This document shows positions 2,218 through 27,701 of a DNA stretch of 32,000 nt, in pieces. Below the pieces are notes generated by a model. The model was given only the letters and a program-made list of their open reading frames with translations. It was not told the origin of the DNA and searched no databases. Both the position numbers and the translations under genes were made by a program. The stretch covers positions 46,397-78,396 of the forward strand of contig CAWDRP010000028.1 in assembly GCA_963804755.1 (NCBI GenBank), given 5' to 3'. Position 1 is the stretch's first letter. Every line of letters starts with the position of its first letter. The DNA comes from an uncultured Acidobacteriota bacterium (lineage in GTDB: Bacteria > Acidobacteriota > Terriglobia > UBA7540).

Positions 2218-2271
2218 GTGCCACGGGCGTCCCGCCCGTGCCCGAGCATGACCAGGATGGCCATGGCACAA
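2218..2271. repeat. REP-like palindromic repeat, left copy flanking the RAYT-like gene
   Basis: GTGCCACGGGCGTCCCGCCCGTGCCCGAGCATGACCAGGATGGCCATGGCACAA recurs at 2935-2988 with a single mismatch (2251 A vs G). It contains the hairpin CACGGGCG-TCC-CGCCCGTG. Confidence 0.8.
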
Positions 2272-2294
2272 CGCGCAACATAAAGCTTTTGCGA

Positions 2295-2918
2295 ATGACT
2301 AAACACCCCTACGAACCGCGCGGCATCGCCATTCGCCATGGCGCATACCTTCCCCATTGGACACGGGAGAGCGCAATCTACGCGATTAATTTTCATCTGG
2401 CCGACTCGTTGCCGAAGTCGGTCGTTAAAGCCTGGGAATTTGAGCGTCTCGACATCATCAGGACCGCGCAACAATTGAACCGCCCCCTGACCCTTGCCGA
2501 GGAGACTCGGCTGGACAAGCTCTATTCCGAGAAAGTCGAAACGTACCTGGACGCAGGTGCAGGCGCATGTTGGATGCAAAGAGACGACGTGGCGGGAGTG
2601 GTAGCGGGTGCGCTTCTTTACTTCGAGGGGGTAAGATATCGCCTTGCTGCTTGGTGTGTGATGCCGAACCACGTTCACGCCGTCATGCAGCCGCTACCAG
2701 GTTATGAGCTTCCGGGAATTGTGCATTCGTGGAAATCATTCACCGCCAAGGAAGCGAACCGTCTGCTGGGAAGGACCGGGCGGGTCTGGCAACCTGAGCC
2801 GTACGATCACCTGATTCGGGATGAAGACGACTTCCAGCGCCAAGTGGAGTACGTCCTCGCTAATCCCGTACGCGCCGGCTTGATGAATTGGAAATGGGTA
2901 GGTGGTGGCACGGAGTGA
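2295..2918 (+). CDS. Y1/HUH transposase-like protein of the REP-associated (RAYT / IS200-like, COG1943-type) group
   Basis: HUH motif in CVMPNHVHAVMQP. The C-terminal WQPEPYDHLIRDEDDFQRQVEYVLANPVRAGL is typical of this family. The start is placed at the internal ATG at 2295, because 2238-2294 of the track ORF lies inside the REP repeat. The gene is flanked by direct copies of a 54-bp palindromic repeat. Confidence 0.75.
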   Translation: MTKHPYEPRGIAIRHGAYLPHWTRESAIYAINFHLADSLPKSVVKAWEFERLDIIRTAQQLNRPLTLAEETRLDKLYSEKVETYLDAGAGACWMQRDDVAGVVAGALLYFEGVRYRLAAWCVMPNHVHAVMQPLPGYELPGIVHSWKSFTAKEANRLLGRTGRVWQPEPYDHLIRDEDDFQRQVEYVLANPVRAGLMNWKWVGGGTE

Positions 2919-12406: not shown

Positions 12407-13432
12407 ATGGATCACCCATTGTGTCCGCGTTATACGTTCGACACGTTCGTCGCGAGCGGATATAACCAGTTTGCTTACGCGGCCGCGCAAGCCGTGGCGG
12501 CAAGTCCCGGGAAATCGTATAACCCGCTGTATATCTACGGCGCCGTGGGGCTGGGGAAGACGCATCTGATGCAGGCCATTGGCCACGCGATCAAGGGAAA
12601 ATGGCCGGAGATGCGCGTGGCCTATGTTTGCGCCGAGACTTTCAGCAACGAGCTCATCACCGCCCAACGCCACGATCGCCTGGATTCATTCCGCCATAGC
12701 TACCGGAGCTTGGACGTGTTGCTGATGGACAGCATCCACTTCATCCCCGGGAAGAAACCAACGGAAAACGAGTTCCTCCACATTTTCAAGCTCTTGCATC
12801 AGGAAGATAAGCAGGTGGTGGTCACCAGCGACTGCCCGCCCAAGGACCTCCCGGAGTTGGATGAGCGCCTGCGCGAATGCTTCGGCTGGGGGTTAGTCGC
12901 TGACCTGCAACCTTCTGACATTGAAACCCGGCGGGTGATCCTGGCGAAGAAATGTCAGGACCAGGGGATCGAGCTGCCCGACGATGTTAGCGAATTCATC
13001 GCGCAAAAGTTCGAGTCGAGCGTCCGTGATCTCGAAGGAGCTCTGGTGCGCGTGCACGCCTATGCTTCTCTCACCGGCGCGCCCATCACCCTCTCGATGG
13101 CGCAAAGCGTGCTCAAGAGCATGATTGACCCCATGGAGTCACGCATCTCCATCGAAGAAATCCAGCGCGCGGTCTGCCGGGAATTCGGCCTCAGCGTGCC
13201 ACAATTGAAGGCCAAGAGTGTGACCCGGCGGTTCTCTTACCCAAGGCAGATTGCGATGTACCTTGCCAAGGAGTTGACCTCCGCATCGCTGCCGCAAATT
13301 GGCAGGGAGTTCGGGGGAAAGCACCATACCACCGTGCTGCATGCGATCAACAAGATTGCAGAGCTGCGAGACTGTGACAGGGACCTGAACAGGCTGCTTA
13401 AGAAGCTAAGAGACAGTCTTGATACAGCGTAG
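12407..13432 (+). CDS. dnaA: DnaA-family protein comprising only domains III (AAA+) and IV (DNA binding), with domains I-II absent
   Basis: It begins directly at PRYTFDTFV. Walker A GAVGLGKTHL, box VII-like ERLRECFGWGL, sensor 2 SSVRDLEGAL, and domain IV YPRQIAMYLAKELTSASLPQIGREFGGKHHTTVLHA are present. The upstream gene ends at 12371, so there is no room for domains I-II. Confidence 0.85.
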   Translation: MDHPLCPRYTFDTFVASGYNQFAYAAAQAVAASPGKSYNPLYIYGAVGLGKTHLMQAIGHAIKGKWPEMRVAYVCAETFSNELITAQRHDRLDSFRHSYRSLDVLLMDSIHFIPGKKPTENEFLHIFKLLHQEDKQVVVTSDCPPKDLPELDERLRECFGWGLVADLQPSDIETRRVILAKKCQDQGIELPDDVSEFIAQKFESSVRDLEGALVRVHAYASLTGAPITLSMAQSVLKSMIDPMESRISIEEIQRAVCREFGLSVPQLKAKSVTRRFSYPRQIAMYLAKELTSASLPQIGREFGGKHHTTVLHAINKIAELRDCDRDLNRLLKKLRDSLDTA

Positions 13433-13714: not shown

Positions 13715-16700
13715 TCAATCCGATATGGGGGCCGCGGCGTTGCGCCACGGTGGGAATCCATCGGGGTCTGGCAGGCCGCTGACGCCGCTGAGCGCCTCCG
13801 CCAGCGCTTTCAGAAACTGGTAGTTCGCTTCGCCCAATCGCGAGCGCAGGTGATCAAGCATCGGTTGGACAGTCCAATCCAAGTGCGCATCAGGCGCGCG
13901 CAGGGCAGCTTTGATCTGTCCGACTATGGTGGTGGTGTCCGCCGCGTCCAACACGGTGAACACACACTGGTAGTACAAGATGCGCGGCATGGCATACGCT
14001 GGTGCTTCCTCACGAGCGGCCCAGGCCTGGTTAATCTCCTGCCGGGCCTCCGCCTCTCGATCCGTCATGAGCAGAAGTCGGGCAAGGTGGCAATGCGTGT
14101 CTGGCACTTCGAATCTCTCTTGCAGTAACCCTCGAAGCAACCCCTCAGCGCCAGAGTAGTCTCCACTGAGAATTCGATCCACGGCGTCCTGCCTACGCCT
14201 CCAGGGTTTTTGTTCTTCGTCAGCGTTCTTAAGCTCACGATTCAAGGCCTTTAACTTGCTCCTGAGCATATCCAAGATCAGACCGTCCCGGTTGCTCTGG
14301 GCAAAAGGAATAAGTTGCTCAATGATCTGTCGTGCTGCGACCAGTGCTTGTACATCCAGCAATAAGCAAGTCTTAGCAACATCTCGTCGGATATCAATTC
14401 CTTCGCCCCGCTTTCCGCCTCGTTCGAGTACGGCTGCGAGGCCGAGTCTTCCCAAAAGCGTGTTCAGACGGGATGGGCCCCAGCACTGAAGACACGCGGA
14501 GATCTCCTGCCGCAGTTGTGCCTCCGAATCCTGTAGCACGGGTTCCACGGGTTCAGCATAACTCCAGGTCAGTCCGTTAACATCGAATTGGAGCACTTCG
14601 CCGATCGAGGTGCCAACGGTCATTCGACCGGACACCGGGGAGATCGCGACAGCCGTAACCGGTACCGGCAGGTACGCAATGGTCAGGCACTCACCCGTCT
14701 CTATATTCCACACCCCAAACGCCTTGCCGGAGCACCTTGAGACGACACGCCGGCTGTCCGGCGTTACGCTCACGCTATCGCCAAACCCTTCCAGCACACG
14801 CAGGCACTCACCCTTCTCCAGGTCCCATACCCGCACCGTATTGTCCCAACTGGCGGAGACTGCGCGCTGGCCATCCGGCATTACGCTCACGCTGCTGACG
14901 CCCATCGTGTGCCCCTCCAGCACGCGCAGGCACCTCCCAGTCTCCAGGTCCCATACCCGCAGCGTTTCGTCCCAACTCCCCGACACCGCGCGCCGACCAT
15001 CCGGTGTCACACTCACGCACATAACCATGCCGTCGTGTCCCTCCAGCACCCGCAGGCAGGCCCCCGTTTGCAGATCCCATACTCGCAACGTATCGTCACG
15101 ACTCGCCGACACCGCGCGCCCGCCGTCCGGCGTCACGCTCACGCTACTGACGCCATCCGTGTGCCCCTCCAGCACGCGCAGGCACTCCCCAGTCTCCAGG
15201 TCCCACATTCGCAGCGTATCGTCCCAACTCCCCGACACCGCGCGCCGGCCGTCCGGCGTCACGCTCACGTTGCTGACGCCACTCGTGTGCCCCTTCAGCA
15301 CGCGCAGGCACTCTCCAGTCTCCGGTTTCCACACCCGCAACGTCTTGTCCCAACTCCCCGAGACCGCGCGCTGCCCATCCCGCGTCAGACCCAAGTCCAA
15401 GATGCCCCTCGTGTGCCCCTCCAGCGCCCGCCGGTCCGATCTCTTCTCCAGCTCCCACACCCGCAACGAGCCATCGAAACACCCCGAAACTGCGTTCCGA
15501 CCATCTGGCGTCACGCTCACGCCTTTTACATCAAACGTGTGTCCTTCCAGCACGCGCAGGCACTCCCCAGTCTCCAGGTCCCAGACCCGCATCGTTTCGT
15601 CCATACTCGCGGAGATCGCATGCAGGCCATCCGGTGTCACGCTCACGCATTCGACATCATTCGTGTGCCCCTCCAGCACCCGCAAGCACACCCCAGTCTC
15701 CAGGTTCCACACCCGCAAAGTCTTGTCTTCACTCGCAGAAACCGCCCGCTGGCCATCCGACGACACGCTCACACCACGAACCGCTTTGGCGTGCCCGTTC
15801 AGTACTCGCAGACACGCCCCAGTCTCTAAATCCCACACCCGCAACGTAGGCTCATAATTACCCACCGACACCGCGCGTCGGCCATCCGGCGTTATGCTTA
15901 CGCTCATGACTTCATTCTCGTACCCCTCCAGCACACGCAGGCACGCCCCTGTCTCGATGTCCCACACCCGCAACGTAAAGTCAGGACTTGCCTCGGTCCA
16001 TGGGTCGCCACTCCCCGACACTGCGCGTCGGCTGTCCGGAGTTACGCTCACGCAATTGATCCCTTCACTGTGCCCCTCCAGCTCACGCAGGCACACCCCC
16101 GCCTCAATGTCCCATAACAGCAACGTCTGGTCACAGCTCGCCGAAACTGCACGCCGGCCATCCGGTGTTATGTTCACGGAAGTGATCCAATGCGAGTGTC
16201 CCGCCAGCACGTGGAGGCACGCTCCCGTCTCCAGGTCCCACACCCGCAACGTCTTGTCCCAACTCCCCGAGACCGCGCGCCGACAGTCCGCAGACACGCC
16301 CACACACGTGACACATTCCGTGTGCCTTTCCATCGTTCTCATTAACGCGGGTCTCGGGTTGTATGGGTCACTGGGAAACCAACGCCGCGCGAGCAGCGGC
16401 ACATTCACGGCGGGCAAAACCCGGGTAGCCATCTCCTTCACGGGTCCACGAGGCGCATGGTTATAGGCTTGCTGCATTACGAATCCCAACCGAGTACCGA
16501 ACTGCTGCAGCGCGTATGTTTCCTGCTGAACGAAGCTTTGAAACTCCTGCATCCGATCCAGACGTGTAGGATTTGCCCGAATACGCTCGGCCTCCTGCTC
16601 GATGCGCTCTTCGCTCCAGGGCCACACCGAGCGCACGGGTTCCGGCGACACCGGCTCTGGTTCCGTGAGGGTTTCCCCGCGTGCCAGGCGGTCACGGCGG

Positions 16701-18946
16701 ATGTTCCATTGCCGCGCGTAGTCCATGATCTCTTTGGTCCACCGGGCGGTCTCCGATTGTCGCCGCGCTTCTTCCTTCAATTCTGCATGCGCCTCGGGCA
16801 GAGCGGCGATGGCATTGCGATAGTCCAATTCGAGATCGACAACCAGACCGGCCGCGCATTTGGCCGCGATAAAGTCCAAATCGGTGAGTGTGGCCTCCGG
16901 GTCCGCCAGGGCGGTTGCACGGATCTCGTGCCGCACCAGTTCGGTGATCTTGCGCTCGTTGGCCTGCATGGTGCCTTTGTTCCGCCAGTGGGACTGTTCG
17001 CCGAAGTACCTGGCAAGTGCAGCGTGCCGCAAGGCGCCCTCGTCTTCTTGCAAATAGAGCCCCGCCGCCCGCTCGGCGACCTGCCGGTGGTAGAAGGCCA
17101 TCACCTTGCCGCCGGGCGCGGCGCGTTCGTTCAGATAGGGCTCAAGATCAAGGAACAGCCGCGACCAGACAATCACGGGCAGCCGCCGTTCGGGCGGGGT
17201 GTGGTGAGCGCGCAGTTCGAAGTCCTGCCACAACGCATCATCGGCCGCCAGAATGTCCAGCATCTCGTCTTCGGTCAGGCCATAGCGCGCGGCGGCCAGG
17301 AAACCCAGGCTGCGATTGACCAGGATCGGGCCGTGATGGTTCTCCTGGGAGAGCCGGTCGAACAGCACGTCGATCATGCCGCCGACATCGTTCCCGAGCG
17401 CACACCTTTCTGCTGCCTGAAATGACTGCCAGAGCCGGGCCTCTTCGAAGGCCAGCTTCAGATACAGCGGTAACCCGGACCGGGCGAAGCCGCTCAGCAC
17501 CTTCTCCCGTTGCTCCGGTTGCAGCTTGCGGCGCGCATCCTGGAGCCACGCCGAAAGCACTGCTTCCGCCTCGCTCGCGGGAAAGTCTTCCACCGCAATC
17601 CGCGACGCGTTCTTGAGCCCGGCCGGAATCTCCGTGGTGGAAACCACCAGCGACACGTGCGGCGGCAGATTCTGCCGCAACCACGTGAAGGAATTCGCTT
17701 CGTCGTCGGAGCGCAACTGATCGAGCGCATCGAGGAACAGAACGAGCGGCCGCTCTGCCGTCGCCCGCGCCATCCGCTCGTGGAACGCCACGACCAGCGG
17801 CTGCAAACCCATAGGCGTCTCTTCGGTGACGCCGTACTCGCGCGAAAGCTGCTCGCACAAGCTGTGCAACAGGGTGATGCCACTGGAAGAATCGGGCGTT
17901 ACACCGATGAAGCGCTGGATGAGCACCGCACTCGGCAACGCCGCCTGGGCTTGCGCCGATGCCTTCGCCACAATGGCCGACTTGCCGCAGCCGGAGGGAC
18001 CGTGCACCACCAGCGGACGTCTTTCGCCGCCCCGAAGATGTGCGTCGATCGCGTTGAGGACACTCTTCCTGCCCGTGAAGTGCCGGGCACGGTCGCGCGC
18101 AAACGCCTCATGCGCCCCAATCTCCAAATCGAGCGCCGGGCGAGACTTGAACCTGGCTACCTCAGCCCCGATAACCCTCCTGAGCTGTCTCCTGACGTCC
18201 GCGCAGAGTCTGGCGAGTCTTGCGGCAGAGAACGGGCGGACATTTTCCGCCGGGAGCTTTTTCCTCAGACTTAGTTTGAGCGCCGCAAGGTCCGGATCTT
18301 GCGCGATGCCCGGAACGGGTTCGCGGAAGAAACCGAAGACGTGTTGCCGGTCCGCCTCCGCCTCGCCCAGGCCTGCCAGAATTTCCTGATGCGTCGCGGA
18401 GGCTTCGTACTTGATGATCTCCCGTTCCGGCAGTCCGGCCGCCCTCGCCGCCTCCGCGAGCGCCTGGCGCAGCGGCTGCTCCACCCCATCCCAGGTGGCG
18501 GGATTGACGAATTCACCGGTGCGCGGCTCTAAGCAACGCTCCGGCGGAACGGCATTCTCGTCGAGCCGATACCACTTCTCAGCCAGCGCTCGTATGTCCC
18601 TGGAATGAATGTGCGGCAGAAGTGCGTTGAACTCCGAGGCGAGAATTCGCGGCGGCAACGGCTGCCAACCGTAGCGGTCGCCCAGCAGAACGATGAAGTT
18701 CGGTTTGATTCCGGTGCGCTGGCAACGCTCGATCTCACGCAGGCAGATTTCCATGGTCTGCTGGTCGAGCGCCGCCTCGTCGCGTACGCCCCAGCGCAGA
18801 TCGATGGCCTGGAAGCGCGCGCCGTGCCGCTCGCAGAGTTTGCGCAGCTTGGGAAACACATCGCGCTGAAGCGCGTTGCGTTCCTCTTTCAAGTCCTCAA
18901 AAGTCGAACTCACAAAAACCCGAAAGGTGCGAGTCGCGATCGGCAT
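13715..18946 (-). CDS. NWD1-like STAND NTPase: DUF4062-type N-terminal domain + NACHT-like P-loop NTPase + 14 WD40 repeats + ~290-aa helical C-terminal region
   Basis: Start at the internal ATG at 18946. N-terminus FRVFVSSTFEDLKEERNALQRDVFPKLRKLCERHGARFQAIDLRWGV...LLGDRYGW (DUF4062 pattern). Walker A VVHGPSGCGKSAIV (~17978-18001) and Walker B LVLFLDALDQL (~17716-17750). There are 14 tandem GH...WD units at 14575-16333. Confidence 0.9.
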   Translation of the reverse strand: MPIATRTFRVFVSSTFEDLKEERNALQRDVFPKLRKLCERHGARFQAIDLRWGVRDEAALDQQTMEICLREIERCQRTGIKPNFIVLLGDRYGWQPLPPRILASEFNALLPHIHSRDIRALAEKWYRLDENAVPPERCLEPRTGEFVNPATWDGVEQPLRQALAEAARAAGLPEREIIKYEASATHQEILAGLGEAEADRQHVFGFFREPVPGIAQDPDLAALKLSLRKKLPAENVRPFSAARLARLCADVRRQLRRVIGAEVARFKSRPALDLEIGAHEAFARDRARHFTGRKSVLNAIDAHLRGGERRPLVVHGPSGCGKSAIVAKASAQAQAALPSAVLIQRFIGVTPDSSSGITLLHSLCEQLSREYGVTEETPMGLQPLVVAFHERMARATAERPLVLFLDALDQLRSDDEANSFTWLRQNLPPHVSLVVSTTEIPAGLKNASRIAVEDFPASEAEAVLSAWLQDARRKLQPEQREKVLSGFARSGLPLYLKLAFEEARLWQSFQAAERCALGNDVGGMIDVLFDRLSQENHHGPILVNRSLGFLAAARYGLTEDEMLDILAADDALWQDFELRAHHTPPERRLPVIVWSRLFLDLEPYLNERAAPGGKVMAFYHRQVAERAAGLYLQEDEGALRHAALARYFGEQSHWRNKGTMQANERKITELVRHEIRATALADPEATLTDLDFIAAKCAAGLVVDLELDYRNAIAALPEAHAELKEEARRQSETARWTKEIMDYARQWNIRRDRLARGETLTEPEPVSPEPVRSVWPWSEERIEQEAERIRANPTRLDRMQEFQSFVQQETYALQQFGTRLGFVMQQAYNHAPRGPVKEMATRVLPAVNVPLLARRWFPSDPYNPRPALMRTMERHTECVTCVGVSADCRRAVSGSWDKTLRVWDLETGACLHVLAGHSHWITSVNITPDGRRAVSASCDQTLLLWDIEAGVCLRELEGHSEGINCVSVTPDSRRAVSGSGDPWTEASPDFTLRVWDIETGACLRVLEGYENEVMSVSITPDGRRAVSVGNYEPTLRVWDLETGACLRVLNGHAKAVRGVSVSSDGQRAVSASEDKTLRVWNLETGVCLRVLEGHTNDVECVSVTPDGLHAISASMDETMRVWDLETGECLRVLEGHTFDVKGVSVTPDGRNAVSGCFDGSLRVWELEKRSDRRALEGHTRGILDLGLTRDGQRAVSGSWDKTLRVWKPETGECLRVLKGHTSGVSNVSVTPDGRRAVSGSWDDTLRMWDLETGECLRVLEGHTDGVSSVSVTPDGGRAVSASRDDTLRVWDLQTGACLRVLEGHDGMVMCVSVTPDGRRAVSGSWDETLRVWDLETGRCLRVLEGHTMGVSSVSVMPDGQRAVSASWDNTVRVWDLEKGECLRVLEGFGDSVSVTPDSRRVVSRCSGKAFGVWNIETGECLTIAYLPVPVTAVAISPVSGRMTVGTSIGEVLQFDVNGLTWSYAEPVEPVLQDSEAQLRQEISACLQCWGPSRLNTLLGRLGLAAVLERGGKRGEGIDIRRDVAKTCLLLDVQALVAARQIIEQLIPFAQSNRDGLILDMLRSKLKALNRELKNADEEQKPWRRRQDAVDRILSGDYSGAEGLLRGLLQERFEVPDTHCHLARLLLMTDREAEARQEINQAWAAREEAPAYAMPRILYYQCVFTVLDAADTTTIVGQIKAALRAPDAHLDWTVQPMLDHLRSRLGEANYQFLKALAEALSGVSGLPDPDGFPPWRNAAAPISD
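14575..16333 (-). repeat. Coding tandem repeat: 14 WD40 units of about 126 bp (enough for two 7-bladed propellers)
   Basis: Consensus HTxxVxxVSVTPDGRRAVSGSWDxTLRVWDLETGECLRVLEG. Most units are near-identical apart from a few fixed positions. Unit 3 carries an 8-aa insertion, and units 13-14 are diverged. Confidence 0.9.
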
Positions 18947-19171
18947 GGGGGCGGTCCACAGAAGACTTACTGCGATGTGCAACAGCTTTTTCGATGGTGG
19001 TTACTTTACACCCTCTTGAGCCATACAGGAATCGATGGAGAAAGTCATCACTGTTTGCGCGTTCTCCCAATCCCATTAATCGAATGAGGGATCGCAGGTT
19101 AGGCGGGAAGTTCGTCATTCGCGATCACCGGTCATCGAAGGTACGAAATGAAGACGTCAGCCATGGCCGGT

Positions 19172-19609
19172 TCACCCTTCCGAGGCTTCGGCGAGCAGCC
19201 GCTCGCGTGCGGCCGTGTACCTGGCGTGCCGACTGGCCGCATCGGGGTCGACGGGCAACGCGCGTTGCGGATCCAGGTTGTCAGCCAGGTCGGCCAGTTT
19301 CACCTGCCGCGCCAACGGATTCGTCGCGACTCGCTCGATCATGGCTTCATAGGTCTCTCCCCTCCGGCGCGTCAGGCAATCCACGGCTGCGCGAACCTGC
19401 TCGCTGTACCCGGCGGATTTCAAGTCGGACAGGGTGACGGAGGTATCTTCCAATACGTCATGCAACACGCCGACCCTGCGGGCGGCATCCTCGTTCTGCC
19501 GGAGCATGACGCGGAGGACATGCAGAATATACGGCTCCCCTCCCTTGTCCACCTGACCACGGTGAGCCTGGGAAGCGAGAATAATGGCGTCTTCAAGCGT
19601 GGGTGTCAT
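19172..19609 (-). CDS. Small HD-domain hydrolase of the RelA/SpoT (RSH) hydrolase type (small-alarmone-hydrolase-like)
   Basis: 145 aa. AHRGQVDKGGEPYILHVLRV, VGVLHDVLEDT and ARQVKLADLADNLD match the HD_4 / (p)ppGpp-hydrolase motif layout. The ATG at 19609 overlaps the upstream gene's stop (19593-19595) by 17 nt. Confidence 0.8.
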   Translation of the reverse strand: MTPTLEDAIILASQAHRGQVDKGGEPYILHVLRVMLRQNEDAARRVGVLHDVLEDTSVTLSDLKSAGYSEQVRAAVDCLTRRRGETYEAMIERVATNPLARQVKLADLADNLDPQRALPVDPDAASRHARYTAARERLLAEASEG

Positions 19610-21908
19610 TTTGTTCCAGTTTTACCAGGGAATAGCCGAGTTCGGGCAGGTACTTGAGAATTGCCTGGACCGTCGCCAAGTCGAGGGGGCGGACTTCGTT
19701 GGGAAGCTCGTCGAAGGGCAGAATGTTCGGGTTCAAACGGAGTGCCGGACTCTTAGGGCCATGCGTCCAGCCGCTTTGCAAAAGCTCGCGCAGCCAACGG
19801 TCATGTTCGAGACGCTGCAGCCTCTGCAGCTCATGCGGAGGGATCGCGGTCGATGGCGTGTTCGGGCAGCCGCGAACCAGCCGATAGCCACAACCGACCA
19901 GTGCTGTAAGCGTCGAGCGGACGCTGCTGCGGTTGCTTTCCTTCTTGTTGTCGGGCAGCTTGTCGAAACACACATCGTTGGGGTTCGGCTCTGGTCCGGG
20001 CACGATTTTTGCACGGTAGGCATCGTGAGTGGCGATCGCCAAGACCTCAATCTCGGCAAGGCCCAGCAACAGCTCTCTGACCCCGGTTTCGAAATCTGCG
20101 GTAACGTGGAGCCTCAACAGATCGCTGGAAGGCAATGCTGCTGCGCCAAATTGCGACGCCTTGGCCAGGTTGCTCATGCTGACGATCGACTCGATGGAGC
20201 GGGCACCGTGCTCGTAACGCGTGGCGCTAAGAAAGGCCCGGACTACACTCGCGTCAATGGCCAGATGCTTGGAGATGGGGTCAAGAAGATGAGGAGCGTG
20301 CCTCCGCACGTGACTTCTCAGCATGATGGCGCGGCGTATGATGTGCGCGTGGCCTGAGGCCCCTGCCTCCGGATTCGGGCCCTTGACATCAATATGTCCT
20401 CGCAGGCGGCTGACGAAGTCCGGCCCTTTTTGCTTTTTGAAATGATCATACTCAGGCGTGTCGGGTTTCTGCGCGTCGGGTTTCTTATGGAACTCGGCCA
20501 AGCTTGCGGACGTCCCCCCGGCAAAAACAAAAATTGCTTTTCCGAACGGGTAATGCATCCCCCCAGCATGGAACTGGGCATCCTGCATGGGGCAGAGGAA
20601 GTCTTTCAGCCACTTGAGGTCGCCGGTATCAAACTCGTCCCAGAAGACAAACGGCATCCGGCCCTGGGTGGCGGCATCGCGAATCCGGTGGAATGCCGTG
20701 TGCAGATCCTCGGGTTTCGCCATTTGCGACAGGTTGAAGTCGTAGCCCGACGCTGAGTCGCCAGCGACATCTCGCATCAGTTCTTTGACGGCGAATGACT
20801 TCCCGGAACCGGGCGGACCAAATACCGCGAAAGACAAGGGGCGCGTGTCTTTACTATTGCTAAGATAGGTGACGATCAGATTGCGGACCGAGTTGAGGCA
20901 CTCAATCTCGCTGCGGTCCACGGTGAAGTACTTTCCGAAGTTTGCTTTCGGCACGGGCTTTAGTGCGACCTCCGGACCGCGCAGGACGACATCGACGCCC
21001 GTTGAAACGACCGAATCAAGACCCGCTCCGGTGAAATCTTCCAGCAAGTCCGACTGCGTGGCCGGCCGGGCGCGGAGTTTCGTATCGTCGAAGGTGCCGT
21101 GCGGAAACGCCGTGAAGTAGGTCGAAGCCGGCTCGCCCTTTTCCGGGTGGAGTATCCTGCTGAGGTATTTCATCGAAAGATCGGGGCGGCTTTGTGAAAG
21201 GGAGCCGGCGCCCTTCGCATGGTACTCGCGCGCGGCTGCTAAGGCGCGGCCCAAGGCAACATATAAAGGGTAGGACCCGGGGTCCAGCACCTGCCGCACC
21301 AGCGCCGCGGCGCCAATCTCAACCGTGTGGCGAACCAAGCCGGGGCGTTTCGCCGCCCAGGTTCCCTCCAGAAAATCCGGATCATAGAGGCAGCGTTCAA
21401 ACTGCACGCGTTCCGAGAGTCCCCCGCCAGGGGTGCCGTGGAGCGGCAGGCGCGTGAAGCTGGCGGCCCCATCCGTGCCGAATACCACCACAACACGCCG
21501 AACGAGCGCCAGGCGGTTGGCGAATCGTTCCCCCAAAAGTTCCCCGGTCGTCTCCTCAATGGTCGCGTCCCACGAGAGTGGCGCCCTTATTGCCGCGCCA
21601 TATGAACGAAGGGTATCTGCCGACACGACTACGGTGAGCCGGTCACCACACACCTTCAGAAGATGTCCCCAAAGCTGGCCCTGAAACAGCGGCGCCACCG
21701 TGGTCAGAATGACATGCTCAGGCCTTCCACCCTGCCGGAGAGCCGCCGGCCAATTCTCCGGCGTGTCTCGGAATCCCAGGGAGCAGTCCGCAATCGCCAG
21801 GACGTCCGGACTGGCGGTTACGTCGCGTCCCCATGACAGCTTTGGTTTGCGCTGCCGCTTGAAGCCTAGTATTACTATGTTAAGTCGTATCCTCAAAAAT
21901 TTGTTCAA
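19593..21908 (-). CDS. AAA+ ATPase with a C-terminal tandem RyR-like module. This is the 3' portion of a gene interrupted by an IS; native sequence ends at 21869
   Basis: Walker A FGPPGSGKSFAV (~20786-20822) and Walker B FVFWDEFD (~20628-20651). The C-terminus IATHDAYRAKI...LPDNKKESNRSSV...GYRLV followed by LEHDRWLRELLQSGWTHG...LNPNILPFDELPNEVRPLDLATVQAILKYLPELGYSLV is RyR-domain-like. The first 13 codons of the track ORF (from a TTG at 21908) are IS terminal-repeat sequence, not native. Confidence 0.75.
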   Translation of the reverse strand: MNKFLRIRLNIVILGFKRQRKPKLSWGRDVTASPDVLAIADCSLGFRDTPENWPAALRQGGRPEHVILTTVAPLFQGQLWGHLLKVCGDRLTVVVSADTLRSYGAAIRAPLSWDATIEETTGELLGERFANRLALVRRVVVVFGTDGAASFTRLPLHGTPGGGLSERVQFERCLYDPDFLEGTWAAKRPGLVRHTVEIGAAALVRQVLDPGSYPLYVALGRALAAAREYHAKGAGSLSQSRPDLSMKYLSRILHPEKGEPASTYFTAFPHGTFDDTKLRARPATQSDLLEDFTGAGLDSVVSTGVDVVLRGPEVALKPVPKANFGKYFTVDRSEIECLNSVRNLIVTYLSNSKDTRPLSFAVFGPPGSGKSFAVKELMRDVAGDSASGYDFNLSQMAKPEDLHTAFHRIRDAATQGRMPFVFWDEFDTGDLKWLKDFLCPMQDAQFHAGGMHYPFGKAIFVFAGGTSASLAEFHKKPDAQKPDTPEYDHFKKQKGPDFVSRLRGHIDVKGPNPEAGASGHAHIIRRAIMLRSHVRRHAPHLLDPISKHLAIDASVVRAFLSATRYEHGARSIESIVSMSNLAKASQFGAAALPSSDLLRLHVTADFETGVRELLLGLAEIEVLAIATHDAYRAKIVPGPEPNPNDVCFDKLPDNKKESNRSSVRSTLTALVGCGYRLVRGCPNTPSTAIPPHELQRLQRLEHDRWLRELLQSGWTHGPKSPALRLNPNILPFDELPNEVRPLDLATVQAILKYLPELGYSLVKLEQNDTHA

Positions 21909-23252
21909 ACTTCGTTCCGCAGAAGGGACAGAGTCCGCTCCATCTCACCAGCCAGGGCTGGATCGTGCGGAGAATCTGTTCCCACGTCGCACCAGAAGTT
22001 TTTTTTACGCCGTAAGTAGACGGTCAGGATAAAGAGATAAGCCACGGCGGAAAGCACCAAGTGATGATGAAAGCCTCGCCACGAGCGGCCTTCGAAATGG
22101 TCCAACCCCAAGTCATCCTTGGAGCGCTGGAAGTATTGTTCGATGTGCCAGCGGGAACGGCTCAGTTTCAAGCAACGGGCCTTGGTGGGAGGAGCGTGGA
22201 GATGGGCCAAGTAATAATGATAGGGCGCAGGGTCCCCTGCCGGCCAGTCCACCACCAGCCAGACTTTTTCCAGTTCGCCCCCCGCGTGGCGCAAGTCGTG
22301 TTGCAGAAAAACCTCTCGCCAAGCCAGCCGCGTGCGCTGGGTTTGGCCGCCCGCCGTTACCCAAGAACACTTCTTCCATTCGTTCTCCGGGATGCGGCCG
22401 GTCAACTCCGCCAAGGTGGTGGCGGGAGGTTCCCCGTCACAGACGTAACGGCGCACCCGCTTGACCTCGGTCCGCACTTCGCGGTCCCATCCCTTGAGCG
22501 CCTGCCCGTCGACTTGCAGAAAAAACTCCATGTCCAACGCCCGCACCCCGGCGCGAAAATCCGCGTTGTTGCCGTAGGCGCTATCCCCCAAGACCGGTGC
22601 CGGAGGAACTCCGTCGTGCCGCGCTTGGCGCAGGATCCCCAGCGCCAGCTCCGGCTTGGTGGCAAACCTCACTTCCGGCGGGACTCCGGCGGCCTGGCAG
22701 CGTTCCCGGTCGGCGGTCCAGCGCTCGGGCAGATACAGCCGCCCGCCCACCGGCGCGGCAATCCATCCGTCGCTCACCACCACTTCCACGCTCACTTGAC
22801 AGTTGGCCTGCTTGCCCACCGCCCCACAATATTGATGCGAAACTCCCACCGAGTGCGAGCCCTGTTTGACCCAGCCGGTTTCATCCACCACCCAGGCCTC
22901 CAGCGGCTCCAAGTGCGGAATGATCTCCTGCCGGATCGCGCGCCACAACTCTTCCTCGCTCCAGGGACTGTCGGTAACAAACTGCTGCAGACTTTGCGAG
23001 TCCACACCCAGGCGCTCGGCCATGGGGATGATCGATTTGCGCTGCCCCGGCATCAACAGCCCTTCCACGTAGCGTGTGGCCGCCACGCGCCGCTCACTTC
23101 GGCCCAGCCCGGCAATCAGCGGATTCAAAAACTCAAGGAATTGTGCCACGCTTTCTTTCCAAAGCTTGCCATTCCAGCGCATGGGCTTCATGGGCCCATG
23201 CTAAGTCATTCGAAGGAGAATTTCAAGAACTACTTAACATAGTAATACTAGG
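21865..23252 (-). mobile_element. IS701-family-like insertion sequence (~1.38 kb) inserted into the AAA+/RyR gene
   Basis: Perfect 21-bp terminal inverted repeats CCTAGTATTACTATGTTAAGT (21865-21885) and ACTTAACATAGTAATACTAGG (23232-23252). CTAG at both junctions (21866-21869, 23248-23251) is consistent with a 4-bp target duplication. There is a single transposase ORF. Confidence 0.85.
21905..23191 (-). CDS. DDE transposase, IS701-family-like
   Basis: 428 aa. The N-terminal ...GRSERRVAATRYVEGLLMPGQRKSIIPMAERLGVDSQSLQQFVTDSPWSEEELW matches the characteristic IS701/DDE_5-type N-terminus. It lies between the 21-bp terminal inverted repeats. Confidence 0.8.
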   Translation of the reverse strand: MKPMRWNGKLWKESVAQFLEFLNPLIAGLGRSERRVAATRYVEGLLMPGQRKSIIPMAERLGVDSQSLQQFVTDSPWSEEELWRAIRQEIIPHLEPLEAWVVDETGWVKQGSHSVGVSHQYCGAVGKQANCQVSVEVVVSDGWIAAPVGGRLYLPERWTADRERCQAAGVPPEVRFATKPELALGILRQARHDGVPPAPVLGDSAYGNNADFRAGVRALDMEFFLQVDGQALKGWDREVRTEVKRVRRYVCDGEPPATTLAELTGRIPENEWKKCSWVTAGGQTQRTRLAWREVFLQHDLRHAGGELEKVWLVVDWPAGDPAPYHYYLAHLHAPPTKARCLKLSRSRWHIEQYFQRSKDDLGLDHFEGRSWRGFHHHLVLSAVAYLFILTVYLRRKKNFWCDVGTDSPHDPALAGEMERTLSLLRNEV

Positions 23253-23560
23253 TGCCTGTCGATCCGCCAGATGCGATCCTTAGGCTCGAGCTCCTCACCC
23301 TGCACGGGTGCACACGGCGACCACAACGCCACGGCGCGGGCGGCTGCCGCTGTTGGCAGCGGGGCGGATACGGTCCAGTCAACATTCTGCGGCTGCTCCA
23401 ATGCCATCTGGATATAGTCGGCGAGCCGCCACGCCCCTCCGTGTTCCTCCTGAACGTCGAGTGAACAGTTAGCGCCTGCTCGGCAAGCCGCCATCGCGTC
23501 GTCAACAAAGATGTTCTCCTGAATCAGCAAGTCACCGGCAACAACAACTGTTTTCGCCAT
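23252..23560 (-). pseudogene. 5' fragment (103 codons) of the IS-interrupted AAA+/RyR gene
   Basis: ATG at 23560 is preceded by GGAGGTGGGAACG. It reads MAKTVVVAGDLLIQENIFVDD...EEHGGAWRLADYIQMAL...RIWRIDRH, then runs into the IS end. After conceptual IS removal it joins in frame to LGFKRQRKPKLSWGRDV at 21869. Confidence 0.8.
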
Positions 23561-23906
23561 CGTTCCCACCTCCGGAGAGATGAATAGCTGATGAACACGT
23601 CGTACACGGCTTTACCCCCGATGAGCACTCACGCGGTGCGTCCGCGCAGCGGAGCCGCCCATCACCATCCGGCAGGAGGTGACAGTTGCTATGGCGGGCC
23701 AGCATATCACAAGCAACAAGCCACCTACCGCACCGAATGCACGATGGACCAACCTGCTGCCGTTTACAGCCTGTGTCGGAGGCAGTGACCGGCTGCCGCG
23801 CAACAGACATGCCGCGAGAAGGACTCTTGTCTCAAGCCTGCTCCTGCCTCATAATGCCACGCGGCAGCTGTGGGCCGTACACTCCGCATGCTTGATCGGG
23901 TGAGCC

Positions 23907-26900
23907 ATGAGCGATGCCCATCCCCTGGGGCGTCAGATCCGCGTTTTTATCTCTTCGACCTTCCGCGACATGCAGGCGGACCGCGATGTGCTGGTGAAGA
24001 AAACCTTTCCCCAGCTTCGCAAGCTGTGTGAGTCGCGAGCCGTGACTTGGACGGAGGTGGACCTGCGCTGGGGCATCACCACCGAGCAGCAGGCCGAGGG
24101 GAAAGTGCTGCCCTACTGCCTGGCCGAAATCGAGCGCACCCGGCCGTTCTTCATCGGCCTGCTGGGCGAGCGCTACGGCTGGGTGCCCGAGAGCATTCCG
24201 GCGGACCTTCTCGAACAACAGCCTTGGCTCCGCGAGCACCTCGAGCACTCGGTCACCGAGCTCGAAATCCTGCACGGCGTTCTGAACAACCCCGCCATGG
24301 CCGACCGGGCGCTGTTCTACTTCCGCGACCCGGCCTACGCGGCTGCGGCGCCGGGCGGGAAAAAGGACGACTTTGTCGAGACGGGACCGGACGCCGAGCG
24401 GATGCAGGGGAAGCTCAGGAGCCTCAAGAAGCGTATCCGCACGGCCGCCGAGCAGAAGAAGCTTAAGCACCCACCACGCGAAAACTACGCCGATCCCGAG
24501 TCCTTGGGTGCCTTGATTTTGGCGGACTTCACTCAGATCATCGACGAACTGTACCCGGCCGCAGAAGTCCCCGATCCCCTCGACCAGGAAGCCGCGCGGC
24601 ACGAGGCTTACGCGCGAAGCCGACGGTTCGGATTCGTTGGGCGCGGAGAGCTGCTGCGCCGCCTGAACGAACACTGCACCGCGCCTGGCCAGCCACTGGT
24701 TCTCACGGGTGAATCAGGCTGCGGGAAATCTGCTCTGCTGGCCGAATGGGTGCACGAGTGGCGCGAGACGCATTCGGACGATTTGATTCTCCAACACTAC
24801 ATTGGCAGCACGCCGGATAGTGCTGACTGGCCGCGGCTGGTGCGCCGTATCCTGGCCGAAATCAAACGTACCTACGCCATCACCGGCGATATTCCGGCCC
24901 AGCCCGAAGCCCTGCGGAACGCCCTCAGCGAGTGGATCATCAAAGCCTCCGGTTCGCATCGGATTGTGTTGGTGGTCGACGCGCTGGACCAACTGCCTGA
25001 CGGCGGAGCGGCCCGACAACTCGGCTGGCTGCCAACTGTCTTTCCCGCCAATTTCCGAGTGCTCATTTCCAGCCTTCCAGGTGAGGCGCTGGATGCCTTG
25101 CGCAAGCGAGGCGGGGCAGAATTGCACGTGCCGTTGTTTGGCAAGGCTGACATTGCTCCCGCAGTGGCCGCTTACTTCCAGCTATTTGGCAAAACGCCGC
25201 CGAAGGAAATGGTAACGAGGTTGGAATCCGTTCCGGCTGCGTGCAACGCTCTCTACCTGCGCACCGTGCTGAACGAATTACGCCAGTTCGGCGAATACGC
25301 CAAGCTGCAAGCTACCGCTAACGATTATCTATCCTCCCCCAGCCTGCCAGAACTCTTCGACCGCATCCTCGCGCGCTGGGAGACGGACTTTGGTGCTGAT
25401 TTGGTTCGCACAAGTTTGAGCCTGGTCTGGGCGGCGCGCCGCGGCCTCTCCGAAGCTGAAATCCTTGATTTGCTCGGTGAGCACTCAAGTCACGATTGGT
25501 TCACGGCTAATTCCAAGAGTTCAGTAACTGAGCTGCGTAAGCTACTCGATGAGCTTCATACACCTCGTGCGCCACTGCCGCGCGCAAGATGGACACCTTT
25601 CTTTCTGGCATCTGAGGCGGAAGTCACTAATCAGGCAGGCGTATTAACCTTCTCGCACTCGCACTTCCGCGACGCCGTGGAGAAAAGGTACCTGCCGGGT
25701 GCAAAAAGCAAACGGGCGGCCCATGAGCGTTTGGCACTGTATTTTGATTCGTTGCCACTTCCAGCCCGCATCGGTGTGGACGGTTCAATCCACATCGAAC
25801 CGGATGCCGTTGCATCGTCCCGTGCACTTGATGAAGAGCCGTGGCAACTTCAGGCTGCCTGCCGGTGGGAGGCTCTAGCCGATCACTTAAGTTTCATGCC
25901 GGTCTTTATAGCGGCATGGGGAACGGGTCGAGAGTTCGAATGGATGCAGTATTGGCAGAGCCTCCTCACGGCAGCAAAAGTAGGTGTTGCTTCACCTGTA
26001 GACATTCCGGCCCTTTATCTCACCGCTTTCCATAGGCTGGGTCCTGCTGACAGAGCTCTTACAGGTGGGATGGTGGGCCAATTTTTGTATGCGCTCGACT
26101 ACTTTGACGCCGCCCTGGAGTGCTTCGAAAAACAAGGCAAGGGAGACGCAGTGGTTGGTGACCCATTTCTTCGCGCCATCACCCTTAATGACAAAGGATT
26201 GGTCGAGCGAGACCGCGGCAACGACCAACAAGCACTGGCACTTTTTGAGGAAGCTGCAGCTTTAGTTGAAAATGGCGGGCCAAGAAAGGGAGAACTTCAA
26301 TCTCAGAGAAACGAGCACCGCCTCCTCGCGTCAATCTTAATGAACGAGGCAAACTCGCAAAAAGAGATCAATGGCACGGCCGGGTGTCGATCGCTGCTTG
26401 ATCGCGCCTTAGCGCTCATGAAGGAGACCACGGGAGAACGGTCGCCGGAAGTTGCCACAGTACTTCAAGAGACGGGAAATCTCGCGATGACAGAAGGGAA
26501 TCCCGAGAAGGCGCTGGACTTGCACCTCCAGGCACTCGCCATCCGGCGTGAGGGACTTGGTCTCGATCACCATGATGTTGCCTTGAGTTTCGGCAACGCC
26601 GCGAACGCATTGGGTGAAATGGGACATTATTACTATGCAACCTGCTTATGGGAGCGGTCGCTGAGGATACTGAAAAAGACGGTCGGCGATGGACATCACT
26701 TTTCCCGGGCGGTAGCCACCCCGCTCGCTCAATGCGCGGCTCGGGCAGACGCAGCAGCGAAGAGCAGTTCCGGGTTTGGTATAGTGTTGCTCGTTTTCAA
26801 TTCGCTGCCGCCGACCGAGAATCCTCCCGACCCGGGCACATCGGAAGGGGCGCAGCTCATGGCACGAGCTGTCAGTGACACTCTGATTGAGATTTGGGAC

Positions 26901-27701
26901 GATTGTCTAGCATACAGCTCGATTCCAGTCCTGATCGTCTCATTTCCGGGCTATGAAGATGCCGTAAGGCTTGCTACCGAGAAAGCAATTGCCAGGCGAT
27001 ATTCGCAAGGCTTCCTGAGCCGGCTGCGGATCCCTTCGGTCCGTGCCAACATCACGCTGCCGATTGGAGCGATGCGCCTGATGTCGGTAAAACGCAAGTT
27101 CCTAAATTGGCTGCAAGAGCACAAGGTCGACGTCCTCATGATCAAACCGGTCACGTCTTGCGGAGCCACGCTCGATCGCCATATCCTGGGCTATGTTCGA
27201 CGGAGTTTTAGCGAGGGCTCAAGCGGCCATTCCAAACTGCAGCCAAAAAGCTCCGACGAGTCCAGTATGGACCTTCGCCCGATAGCGATTGAAACTGTTC
27301 CTTTGGACCAATTCGCCGGGCCCATCTTGGCGCTTTACACAGGTGATAATGACCGTCGTCCGTGCATCTTGACGGCCTCGGAAGTAAGGCGGCAGAACTA
27401 CTGTCCTCAAGCAGCCGACTCACGGGCGACTGGAGTGATTTACGCAAACATGCCCGCCATCCGGCGGTGGTTGAGCACGCATTCAGGCAGCGGTTTGACC
27501 CCGCTTGAACGCTGGTCGATAGATCTATTCCACTCTATTGCCTCGAGACCCAGGGAGGAGCAGTATCACGTATTCGAATCGCTGCTCTCGGCCTTGATTT
27601 TGCTCATAAAGACGAAGCCCATCAGTTTTCCATCTGAACGGGGTATCAGGGGTTTTCAGGAGCAAAGCCTGAACCGGGAAATCGAACGGCTGCTGGCCTG
27701 A
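23907..27701 (+). CDS. NWD1-like STAND NTPase: DUF4062-type N-terminus + NACHT-like P-loop NTPase + TPR (TPR_12-like) repeats + ~310-aa unrecognised C-terminal module
   Basis: N-terminus IRVFISSTFRDMQADRDVLVKKTFPQLRKLCESRAVTWTEVDLRWGI...LLGERYGW. Walker A LVLTGESGCGKSALL (~24698-24740) and Walker B IVLVVDALDQL (~24961-24995). TPR_12-like units appear around 26050-26720 (e.g. ATVLQETGNLAMTEGNPEKALDLHLQALAIRRE). The C-terminal part matches nothing I recognise. Confidence 0.9.
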   Translation: MSDAHPLGRQIRVFISSTFRDMQADRDVLVKKTFPQLRKLCESRAVTWTEVDLRWGITTEQQAEGKVLPYCLAEIERTRPFFIGLLGERYGWVPESIPADLLEQQPWLREHLEHSVTELEILHGVLNNPAMADRALFYFRDPAYAAAAPGGKKDDFVETGPDAERMQGKLRSLKKRIRTAAEQKKLKHPPRENYADPESLGALILADFTQIIDELYPAAEVPDPLDQEAARHEAYARSRRFGFVGRGELLRRLNEHCTAPGQPLVLTGESGCGKSALLAEWVHEWRETHSDDLILQHYIGSTPDSADWPRLVRRILAEIKRTYAITGDIPAQPEALRNALSEWIIKASGSHRIVLVVDALDQLPDGGAARQLGWLPTVFPANFRVLISSLPGEALDALRKRGGAELHVPLFGKADIAPAVAAYFQLFGKTPPKEMVTRLESVPAACNALYLRTVLNELRQFGEYAKLQATANDYLSSPSLPELFDRILARWETDFGADLVRTSLSLVWAARRGLSEAEILDLLGEHSSHDWFTANSKSSVTELRKLLDELHTPRAPLPRARWTPFFLASEAEVTNQAGVLTFSHSHFRDAVEKRYLPGAKSKRAAHERLALYFDSLPLPARIGVDGSIHIEPDAVASSRALDEEPWQLQAACRWEALADHLSFMPVFIAAWGTGREFEWMQYWQSLLTAAKVGVASPVDIPALYLTAFHRLGPADRALTGGMVGQFLYALDYFDAALECFEKQGKGDAVVGDPFLRAITLNDKGLVERDRGNDQQALALFEEAAALVENGGPRKGELQSQRNEHRLLASILMNEANSQKEINGTAGCRSLLDRALALMKETTGERSPEVATVLQETGNLAMTEGNPEKALDLHLQALAIRREGLGLDHHDVALSFGNAANALGEMGHYYYATCLWERSLRILKKTVGDGHHFSRAVATPLAQCAARADAAAKSSSGFGIVLLVFNSLPPTENPPDPGTSEGAQLMARAVSDTLIEIWDDCLAYSSIPVLIVSFPGYEDAVRLATEKAIARRYSQGFLSRLRIPSVRANITLPIGAMRLMSVKRKFLNWLQEHKVDVLMIKPVTSCGATLDRHILGYVRRSFSEGSSGHSKLQPKSSDESSMDLRPIAIETVPLDQFAGPILALYTGDNDRRPCILTASEVRRQNYCPQAADSRATGVIYANMPAIRRWLSTHSGSGLTPLERWSIDLFHSIASRPREEQYHVFESLLSALILLIKTKPISFPSERGIRGFQEQSLNREIERLLA

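Follow-up and report, generated by a model that had tools for sequence, protein, structure and literature searches.

What does a small alarmone hydrolase do at the 3' end of an AAA+ ATPase gene? The question is raised by a 32,000-nt stretch of DNA from an uncultured Acidobacteriota bacterium (contig CAWDRP010000028.1), referred to here as the window, in which an ATPase gene split by an insertion sequence (IS) overlaps the start of a gene for an HD-domain protein. The ATPase combines a PfkB-like N-terminal domain, an AAA+ domain and a tandem ryanodine receptor (RyR) module. A second RyR protein of the window, called RelA-RyR here, carries an alarmone synthetase domain, and two DUF4062 STAND NTPases are encoded, one on each side of the ATPase/HD pair. 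We propose that this pair is probably one arm of a multi-gene, nucleotide-signalling conflict island, probably directed against phages. At the core of this reading the HD protein would degrade the product of the RelA-RyR enzyme within a conflict system of RyR modules, a proposal to which we give an even chance.

By far the closest solved relative of the HD protein was the (p)ppApp hydrolase Aph1 (adenosine 3'-pyrophosphohydrolase 1, a (p)ppApp-specific small alarmone hydrolase; PDB 7SMG; E = 2.1e-24, 42% identity over 118 aa), as against E-values of 1e-13 to 1e-4 for long RSH (RelA/SpoT homologue) enzymes and (p)ppGpp-type small hydrolases. The N-terminal hydrolase region TIGR00691 matched with an E-value of 2e-12, and Pfam HD_4 reached 20.4 bits, under its cut-off of 27.2. 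The metal-binding and catalytic residues H30, H50-D51, E54-D55, K104, D107 and N111 were kept in 125-126 of the 126 closest homologues. Six residues have been reported to mark Aph enzymes, namely D24, R96, D116, R119, K133 and Y134, with D24 and R119 conferring the specificity for adenosine (Ahmad et al. 2023, PMC10083569). The corresponding residues of the window protein are D21, R93, D113, R116, R130 and Y131, so that five of the six are identical to Aph1 and K133 is replaced by R; the signature is conserved among these 126 homologues, the specificity residues D21 and R116 being kept in 120 and 125 of them, respectively. The preliminary description of this DNA had assigned the protein to the RSH-type HD hydrolases, which was confirmed and can now be made more precise: judged by its sequence, it is predicted to be a 3'-pyrophosphohydrolase of the Aph1 family with an adenosine-specific signature, and a new member of that family. 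Like Aph1, it consists of a single HD domain of ~145 aa with all metal and catalytic motifs, and an RSH-type synthetase gene lies in its neighbourhood, just as Apk2 is found in that of Aph1 (PMC10083569). Aph1, however, is carried by a phage and gives immunity to a secreted or injected toxin fused to MuF, whereas the window-type hydrolase is coupled or fused to the PfkB-AAA+-RyR ATPase on a chromosomal island, and its partner synthetase is a large, intracellular, multi-domain protein.

This partner, the RelA-RyR enzyme, is the likely source of the HD substrate. Pfam placed a RelA_SpoT domain at its N-terminus (4.7e-15) and an RyR domain at its C-terminus (1.9e-11), and its nearest solved relatives were RelQ/RelP-type small alarmone synthetases (2be3 and 3l9d at ~1e-8). 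Between synthetase and RyR lie a long helical region and a GGT-rich Rossmannoid region; two orthologues showed a weak or faint LSDAT_prok (SLOG) match among precomputed Pfam assignments. The synthetase catalytic motifs were invariant in seven RelA-RyR homologues, and the enzyme is thus predicted to be catalytically intact. Metagenomes yielded more than 340 relatives of full length. In order to count co-occurrence, we used ATPase loci that had not been selected through RelA and scored HD as present when adjacent, fused or a remnant. A RelA-RyR gene was found in 9 of 11 ATPase loci with HD as compared with 4 of 80 without (Fisher p = 5e-8, a value uncorrected for phylogeny, with perhaps three or four clades represented and a partly targeted sampling). 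The RelA-RyR and HD genes were adjacent or near-adjacent in six loci (L085, L086, L088, L096, L170 and L173). Specifically, L085 holds a compact cassette of RelA-RyR followed by ATPase-RyR-HD, situated among metabolic genes beside an integrase fragment; the RelA-RyR and ATPase genes are divergently adjacent in L086, L088, L170 and L173; and in L096 HD and RelA-RyR are divergent from each other on a contig where no ATPase gene was detected. L173 carries a four-gene cassette of DUF4062-NACHT, RelA-RyR, ATPase-RyR and HD.

Besides the limits of the co-occurrence test, several findings weigh against our proposal. In the window itself the HD and RelA-RyR genes lie 9 kb apart on opposite strands. 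HD was missing from 77 of 80 metagenome RelA-RyR loci and the ATPase from 71 of 80. In one locus (L001) the RelA-RyR and ATPase genes are both intact and the HD next to them has decayed, and the majority of ATPase loci are without RelA as well as HD. The equivalents of the phosphate-contacting His residues of the RyR pocket (H732, H816) are Asn in the window's clade, and compact cassettes such as L085 are without any DUF4062 or TIR gene. Lastly, PADLOC has no model for any core protein, and none matched the recurrent partners of the ATPase family; in PADLOC-DB v2 the ATPase and HD proteins gave no match and the STAND proteins only generic repeat matches. Given its absence from nearly all RelA-RyR loci and its decay in L001, HD is dispensable, and we regard it as a recruited accessory rather than an obligate antitoxin. 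Likewise, since most ATPase loci have neither RelA nor HD, alarmones do not explain the ATPase's own job, and a step involving an NADase cannot be universal because of cassettes of the L085 type. Several features separate the system from the toxic small alarmone synthetases (toxSAS) and their small alarmone hydrolase (SAH) antitoxins, exemplified by FaRel-ATfaRel (Jimmy et al. 2020, PMC7229694). In both, an RSH synthetase is accompanied by an HD hydrolase that degrades, or in the window would degrade, its product, but the window pair is no tight bicistron, its hydrolase is dispensable in most lineages, its synthetase has ~650 extra residues of presumed regulatory domains, and the AAA+-RyR and DUF4062 STAND proteins are extra conserved partners. 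We also noted a 143-aa NUDIX gene divergent from the ATPase gene in L084 (5510-5941, minus strand), a locus with RelA-RyR and without HD; it may encode an alternative nucleotide-clearing enzyme. Within 6 kb no RelA-RyR gene was seen in the HD-bearing locus L081; a free-standing gene for 96 aa there, made up of RyR only (1495-1785, minus strand), could be a remnant of RelA-RyR or a small protein like the phage protein RyDEP.

The arrangement of the genes ties HD to the ATPase as well (Table 1; coordinates follow the window numbering, and the ATPase-gene pieces, IS, transposase and HD gene are all on the minus strand). The IS breaks the ATPase gene after codon 104, leaving the 5' piece (23248-23560) and the remainder at 19593-21865. 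Its terminal inverted repeats of 24 nt are 96% complementary (21865-21888 and 23229-23252), CTAG stands at both junctions, and excision of 21866-23247 joins the two pieces in frame to give 861 uninterrupted codons; as they stand, the open reading frames (ORFs) flanking the transposase gene encode 771 aa (19593-21908) and 111 aa (23234-23569). The TGA stop of the ATPase gene (19593-19595) falls beyond the HD-gene ATG (19609), so that the two genes overlap by 17 nt. The reconstruction and overlap given in the preliminary description agree with ours in every coordinate. The 17-nt overlap recurred in the relatives L081, L082/L083 and L169, the overlap was 4 nt in L173, and a gap of 53 nt precedes HD in L170; overlap with the upstream stop was kept in relatives at 62-81% HD identity. 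Moreover, HD was fused to the C-terminus of 5 of 120 ATPase homologues (P0038, P0040, P0041, P0047 and P0048), apparently independently, which supports the functional link between HD and ATPase that had been suggested.

The same shortened 771-aa product was found in a public assembly (P0001), and the IS allele is therefore no artefact of the window. In the window genome the ATPase gene is inactivated, or at least truncated, by the IS, and the genes for HD, RelA-RyR and the two STAND proteins are intact. A TTG overlapping the stop codon of the transposase opens the 771-aa frame (TTGA, 21905-21908, minus strand); one may speculate that a truncated ATPase without its first ~104 residues might still be translated through coupling to the transposase. 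A second mobile-element trace besides this DDE_5 IS is an ORF with a partial match to an IS200-like Y1 transposase (2238-2918, plus strand).

The broken ATPase gene could be taken to mean that HD is a general small alarmone hydrolase of stringent-response homeostasis which happens to lie beside an unrelated pseudogene. HD homologues of 60-63% identity do sit among unrelated genes of metabolism or the cell wall (L171, L172), and similar contexts were reported by Ahmad et al. (PMC10083569). Such a chance neighbourhood is highly improbable in our judgement: the overlap with the upstream stop is conserved, fusions exist, HD co-occurs strongly with RelA-RyR, and its distribution is patchy and of the island type.

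Comparison across the ATPase family showed where the link with HD holds. If the pair were a general unit, homologues of the ATPase should lie next to HD genes elsewhere; they do in some lineages, where HD is adjacent or fused, and they do not in the 80 best GTDB ATPase loci, in which tblastn found no intact HD gene and only a 48-aa remnant in L001. L001 is the closest GTDB locus (68% identity), with the HD remnant following the intact ATPase gene. We therefore rejected HD as a family-wide partner of the ATPase. An ATPase toxin neutralised by an HD antitoxin was likewise rejected, since L001 combines an intact ATPase with a decayed HD and the majority of family members are without HD. The last ~48 HD codons of L001 survive at 12800-12937, a decay reciprocal to that of the window with its broken ATPase and intact HD.

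The gene usually found directly downstream of the ATPase encodes a different protein of ~190 aa with the motifs GxTGHR, SSLAEGADR and WDG..GGTG, which was present in 46 of 88 ATPase loci and fused to the ATPase in 7 of 120 homologues. It had no significant match in Pfam or among PDB sequences; weak matches to ShosA (0.016), YAcAr (0.058), DprA (0.21) and NDT (0.25), and long forms with SLATT membrane domains, lead us to assign it tentatively as SLOG/DprA-like. HD and this protein look like alternative occupants of one slot, as they never occurred together in the sampled loci. Homology of the ~190-aa protein to the Rossmannoid region of RelA-RyR was considered and rejected (hhalign probability 1%). 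A third RyR family was found in 18 of 88 ATPase loci, typically right after the ~190-aa partner. In its members (~590 aa) transmembrane (TM) helices stand at the N-terminus and an RyR domain (2.4e-19) at the C-terminus, together with a TrkA_N Rossmann domain (1.4e-20); with its RCK-like Rossmann domain, this TM-TrkA_N-RyR protein has the look of a channel-like protein of bacteria that bears a ryanodine-receptor domain.

These observations bear on the alternative that ATPase and HD form a self-contained two-gene unit, as had been suggested for the window. The PfkB-like domain would make or modify a phosphorylated ribosyl nucleotide, HD (elsewhere the SLOG-like enzyme) would process the product, and RelA-RyR would be a mere frequent neighbour. 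It is indeed with the ATPase, not with RelA-RyR, that translational coupling and fusions link HD, and the slot more often holds another small, putatively nucleotide-processing protein, mostly in loci without RelA. On the other hand, the presence of HD tracks that of RelA-RyR, the HD of L096 lies beside RelA-RyR on a contig with no ATPase gene detected, and the Aph1 signature is one for adenosine 3'-pyrophosphates, i.e. products of RSH synthetases. The self-contained unit was thus not upheld: the commonest partner is unrelated to HD, and the occurrence of HD goes with that of the RelA-RyR gene.

The N-terminal domain gives evidence on both sides of this alternative. Searches of its sequence against Pfam, NCBIfam and, by profile, the PDB returned nothing, and the fold search alone succeeded. 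Its AlphaFold2 (AF2) model (pLDDT 81, pTM 0.84) gave 178 PDB matches in Foldseek at E <= 0.001, the best 50 of which were all PfkB-family kinases. The best were to 3w4s/myo-inositol kinase (7e-10), and HldA, pseudouridine kinase, ribokinase and LacC were also matched; TM-scores against PfkB structures were 0.45-0.56. In an alignment of 51 sequences the N-terminal 410 residues were strongly conserved, as expected of a working site, with G9, D10, R99, S202-W203-D204, E213, R228 and P267 invariant. Motifs were placed by eye on the secondary structure of the model. Candidate landmarks of the sugar side stand at ribokinase-like positions (G9-D10 invariant, G41-G42-A43 fully or almost invariant). 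As to phosphotransfer, however, neither NXXE nor the (D)TxGAGD motif with its catalytic Asp was recognisable in the consensus of 20-51 homologues; the strands and helices that correspond to them carry 'VSxxALRxRG' and 'YDPxxLEGxW', and the GAGD position has no conserved Asp. The low-confidence PfkB guess made earlier was thus borne out at the level of the fold, together with its reservation about a GAGD motif. According to its model, the domain would share with PfkB/ribokinase-type kinases the overall fold and, to judge by their positions, possibly the N-terminal G-D and the GG dipeptide; it differs from them in having no similarity at the sequence level and in being fused to an AAA+ domain. 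Since the phosphotransfer motifs are not recognisable, we name it a PfkB-like fold rather than a kinase. It may be a ribosyl-ligand binding domain, and the self-contained unit, in which it would act as an enzyme, appears unlikely to us.

The remainder of the ATPase was more readily assigned. A predicted structure of the full-length protein (AlphaFold, pLDDT 90, pTM 0.91) matched AAA+ proteins, PfkB kinases and the Repeat12 domain of human RyR3 in Foldseek, and its three domains correspond to the architecture first described. The AAA+ region, with its Walker A motif at residues 454-461, matched Clp/Hsp100, dynein AAA and NtrC1 structures, and G454, G457, G459, K460, D514 and E515 were invariant in 51 homologues; Pfam matches to AAA, AAA_16 and bpMoxR stayed below their cut-offs in the window protein, and PF00004 passed in many homologues. 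With Walker A, a Walker B DE and an AAA+ fold with C-terminal lid all present, this domain is predicted to be catalytically intact. Pfam RyR (PF02026) scored 43.9 bits against a cut-off of 27.4 (2.8e-11, repeat 2), and column statistics revealed two repeats at aa ~708-769 and ~785-853 with a common E..H..W...L...G-Y pattern, represented by H718/Y721 in repeat 1 and E791-H792-x-x-W795 in repeat 2. The H-x-x-W residues H792 and W795 were invariant, and H718 was kept in 48 of 51 homologues. The module aligned with human RyR3 Repeat12 bound to ADP and dantrolene (9l9b_B) over 193 columns with a TM-score of 0.56, and the model indicates a complete pocket of the Repeat12 type.

Phage RyR domains of PF02026 have been reported to bind or cleave 2'/3'cADPR (cyclic ADP-ribose), with ADP-ribose (ADPR) held in a pocket lined by H-x-x-W (Lopez Rivera et al. 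2026 preprint, PMC13232231). The equivalents of RyDEP H75, W78 and D117, inferred from the motif pattern, are H792, W795 and D833 and were conserved; that of RyDEP H100 was His in 36 of 51 homologues and is Asn (N816) in the window. The ATPase module thus shares family and fold with RyDEP, and has a two-repeat pocket like that of animal Repeat12 (9L9B). It differs from RyDEP at the phosphate-binding His positions noted above and in its setting: RyDEP is a small phage anti-defence glycosidase or sponge (PMC13232231), whereas the RyR domains described here are the C-terminal domains of large host proteins, namely the ATPase, the RelA synthetase and the TM-TrkA_N protein. That RyR serves as a homotypic, co-evolving adaptor comparable to effector-associated domains (Kaur et al. 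2020) received no support. The RyR domain of the window RelA protein was 26-27% identical to those of ATPases of its own clade and 36-39% to those of unrelated loci, and the presence of complete two-repeat modules in all proteins also counts against an adaptor.

A pocket of this type also allows RelA-RyR to be seen as the signal generator. Its 3'-pyrophosphorylated nucleotide would then bind the RyR pocket of the AAA+ effector and be cleared by the coupled HD, with no need for an NADase. Hydrolases fused to receptors resemble the self-limiting effectors of cyclic-oligoadenylate systems, which speaks for this possibility. In addition, the RyR3 Repeat12 pocket takes plain adenine nucleotides (ADP, AMP-PCP), and cassettes without a nearby TIR or DUF4062 gene exist (L085, and L088 on a short contig). 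The RyR module and putative SLOG-like region of RelA-RyR itself, however, suit a sensor less well than a regulated effector, RelA is absent from most ATPase loci, and neither Pfam nor Foldseek revealed an effector-type domain (nuclease, pore or NADase) in the AAA+ protein. Overall we regard RelA-RyR as the signal generator as quite unlikely.

The remaining members of the proposed island are the DUF4062 STAND genes. One of them is divergent from the ATPase gene with a spacer of 346 nt. The other starts (ATG 18946) 225 nt downstream of the HD gene on the same strand, with no terminator-like site in the gap, and its DUF4062-type N-terminus grouped with 27 loci in a local jackhmmer search. DUF4062-STAND genes were found in 27 of 88 ATPase loci, the nearest copy lying within 1.1 kb (<=1.1 kb) in 16 of these 27, mostly downstream and on the same strand. 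This position recurred in many phyla, with a spacing of 13-14 nt in a planctomycete and an archaeon. They were also present in 26 of 80 RelA-RyR loci, often directly downstream; their orientation is not fixed, being convergent in L082. Comparison across loci thereby lends support to counting the downstream STAND gene with the unit, as had been suggested. More broadly, ATPase and HD genes are patchily distributed in islands with STAND, TIR, restriction-modification and transposase genes. DUF4062 has been described as a TIR-like NADase that yields (linear) ADPR and is active in phage defence (bioRxiv 10.64898/2026.05.01.722283). The flanking genes of the window resemble these published Swarozyc-type systems in having an N-terminal DUF4062 followed by NACHT/AAA_16 and WD40 or TPR, but the latter are stand-alone NAD+-depleting executioners, reported without an RyR, RelA or PfkB-AAA+ partner (bioRxiv 10.64898/2026.05.01.722283). 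The combination of DUF4062 genes with RyR, a binder of ADPR/cADPR in phage proteins, may point to a Thoeris-like system, in which an NAD+-consuming TIR-type enzyme is encoded together with an effector bearing a domain that binds the signal; some cassettes have no TIR at all.

Taken together, we propose the following mechanism for the conflict island. The STAND sensors would detect an invader, and their TIR-like DUF4062 domains would cleave NAD+ to ADP-ribose. The RyR pockets of the RelA-RyR and ATPase-RyR proteins would bind this ADPR-type adenine nucleotide, the PfkB-AAA+-RyR protein serving as the constant, ligand-regulated ATPase hub of the RyR modules. RelA-RyR would then pyrophosphorylate adenine nucleotides to (p)ppApp-like alarmones, draining ATP and stopping growth. 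HD, made in a fixed ratio with the AAA+-RyR protein or fused to it, would hydrolyse the alarmone; comparable in this to a type IV antitoxin or a ring nuclease, it would set the threshold for firing and return the system to its resting state. There is precedent for the enzymatic steps, as RSH synthetases can arrest growth via ppApp/ppGpp and are neutralised by HD hydrolases, FaRel toxSAS by its SAH antitoxin (PMC7229694), and Aph1 protects against (p)ppApp synthetases (PMC10083569). The chain as a whole is inferred and falls short of an even chance in our estimation. More tentatively, and in our view less likely than not, host RyR Repeat12 domains might constitute a new class of second-messenger receptor, comparable to SAVED, CARF, SLOG and Macro, that couples NAD+-derived ADPR-type signals of DUF4062/TIR-STAND sensors to several interchangeable outputs around the PfkB-fold AAA+ hub, itself not known before. 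The outputs would include alarmone synthesis by RelA-RyR, reset by the (p)ppApp hydrolase, and the TM-TrkA_N-RyR channel-like protein.

Table 1 Features of the window, with examples of the third RyR family from other loci
Feature	Coordinates	Strand	Evidence
DUF4062 (TIR-like NADase) STAND NTPase with WD40 propellers	13715-18946	-	WD40 Pfam; DUF4062-type N-terminus by jackhmmer grouping
Predicted Aph1-like small alarmone hydrolase, HD domain, 145 aa	19172-19609	-	PDB 7smg match
Tandem RyR (Repeat12-like) module (aa 705-855)	19614-20066	-	Pfam RyR, column statistics, Foldseek
AAA+ ATPase domain (aa 412-700), Walker A GPPGSGKS, Walker B VFWDEFD	20079-20945	-	Motifs, weak Pfam, Foldseek
Rest of PfkB/ribokinase-like N-terminal domain (aa 105-411)	20946-21865	-	AF2 model and Foldseek
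IS (1378 bp) and one CTAG target duplication, splitting the ATPase gene	21866-23247	-	Inverted repeats; frame after excision
IS transposase, DDE_5 family, 428 aa	21905-23191	-	Pfam PF13546, E = 5.7e-64
5' piece of the PfkB-like/AAA+/RyR gene (codons 1-104 and 1 nt, before the IS)	23248-23560	-	ORF and reconstruction
DUF4062-NACHT-TPR STAND NTPase	23907-27701	+	Pfam DUF4062 1.1e-10, NACHT 1.6e-07, TPR_12 2.1e-15
RelA-RyR: RelA_SpoT domain, helical region, putative SLOG-like Rossmannoid region, tandem RyR, 850 aa	28682-31234	+	Pfam
TM-TrkA_N-RyR examples	L057 13287-15056; L049 13383-15140; L038 7672-9504; L067 5759-7555; L062 6900-8636; L008 2971-4755		

We rate the assembly as a nucleotide-signalling conflict system with an alarmone synthetase/hydrolase arm that is undescribed in the searchable literature. 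In that literature we found no publication linking bacterial RyR with alarmone enzymes, RelA, SLOG or AAA+, although an earlier computational mention is possible; RyR is unmentioned in Kaur 2020, Iyer 2022, the 2025 TIR survey and the DUF4062 preprint. The ATPase family is widespread, uncharacterised and not in current defence-system catalogues. At least 949 homologue clusters aligned over the full length, and relatives occur in at least 578 GTDB species of many phyla, among them Acidobacteriota, Chloroflexota, Planctomycetota, Actinomycetota, Bacteroidota, Chlorobiota, Proteobacteria and a methanogen (a Methanomicrobia metagenome-assembled genome). If our proposal is true, (p)ppApp, so far mainly known as a toxin product, would gain a regulated intracellular immune role with a dedicated synthetase/hydrolase pair. 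The RyR domain had no known prokaryotic role until the 2026 phage study, and hundreds of bacterial and archaeal RyR proteins would acquire a testable function as nucleotide receptors. The proposal also suggests that DUF4062 NADases may signal to partner proteins and not merely deplete NAD+, and it bears on the origin of the adenine-nucleotide/dantrolene pocket of animal ryanodine receptors.

Further genes were noted in and around the cassettes. Canonical TIR_2 genes accompany the same cassette in L170 (1699-2730, 10757-13465) and L081 (1-4982), instead of or besides DUF4062; among them are one that directly follows RelA-RyR and others for a fusion of Hsp70 to TIR_2 and for TIR_2-NB-ARC-TPR proteins. 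In L173 a NERD-protein-kinase fusion and an MmeI-type restriction-modification gene (16139-20429) lie less than 10 kb from the four-gene cassette, which is consistent with a defence-island setting. Lastly, at the island edge in the window, adjoining the STAND gene, an ORF at 12407-13432 (plus strand) encodes a DnaA-like protein of 341 aa that comprises only the Bac_DnaA ATPase domain and a C-terminal helix-turn-helix, without the N-terminal domains.

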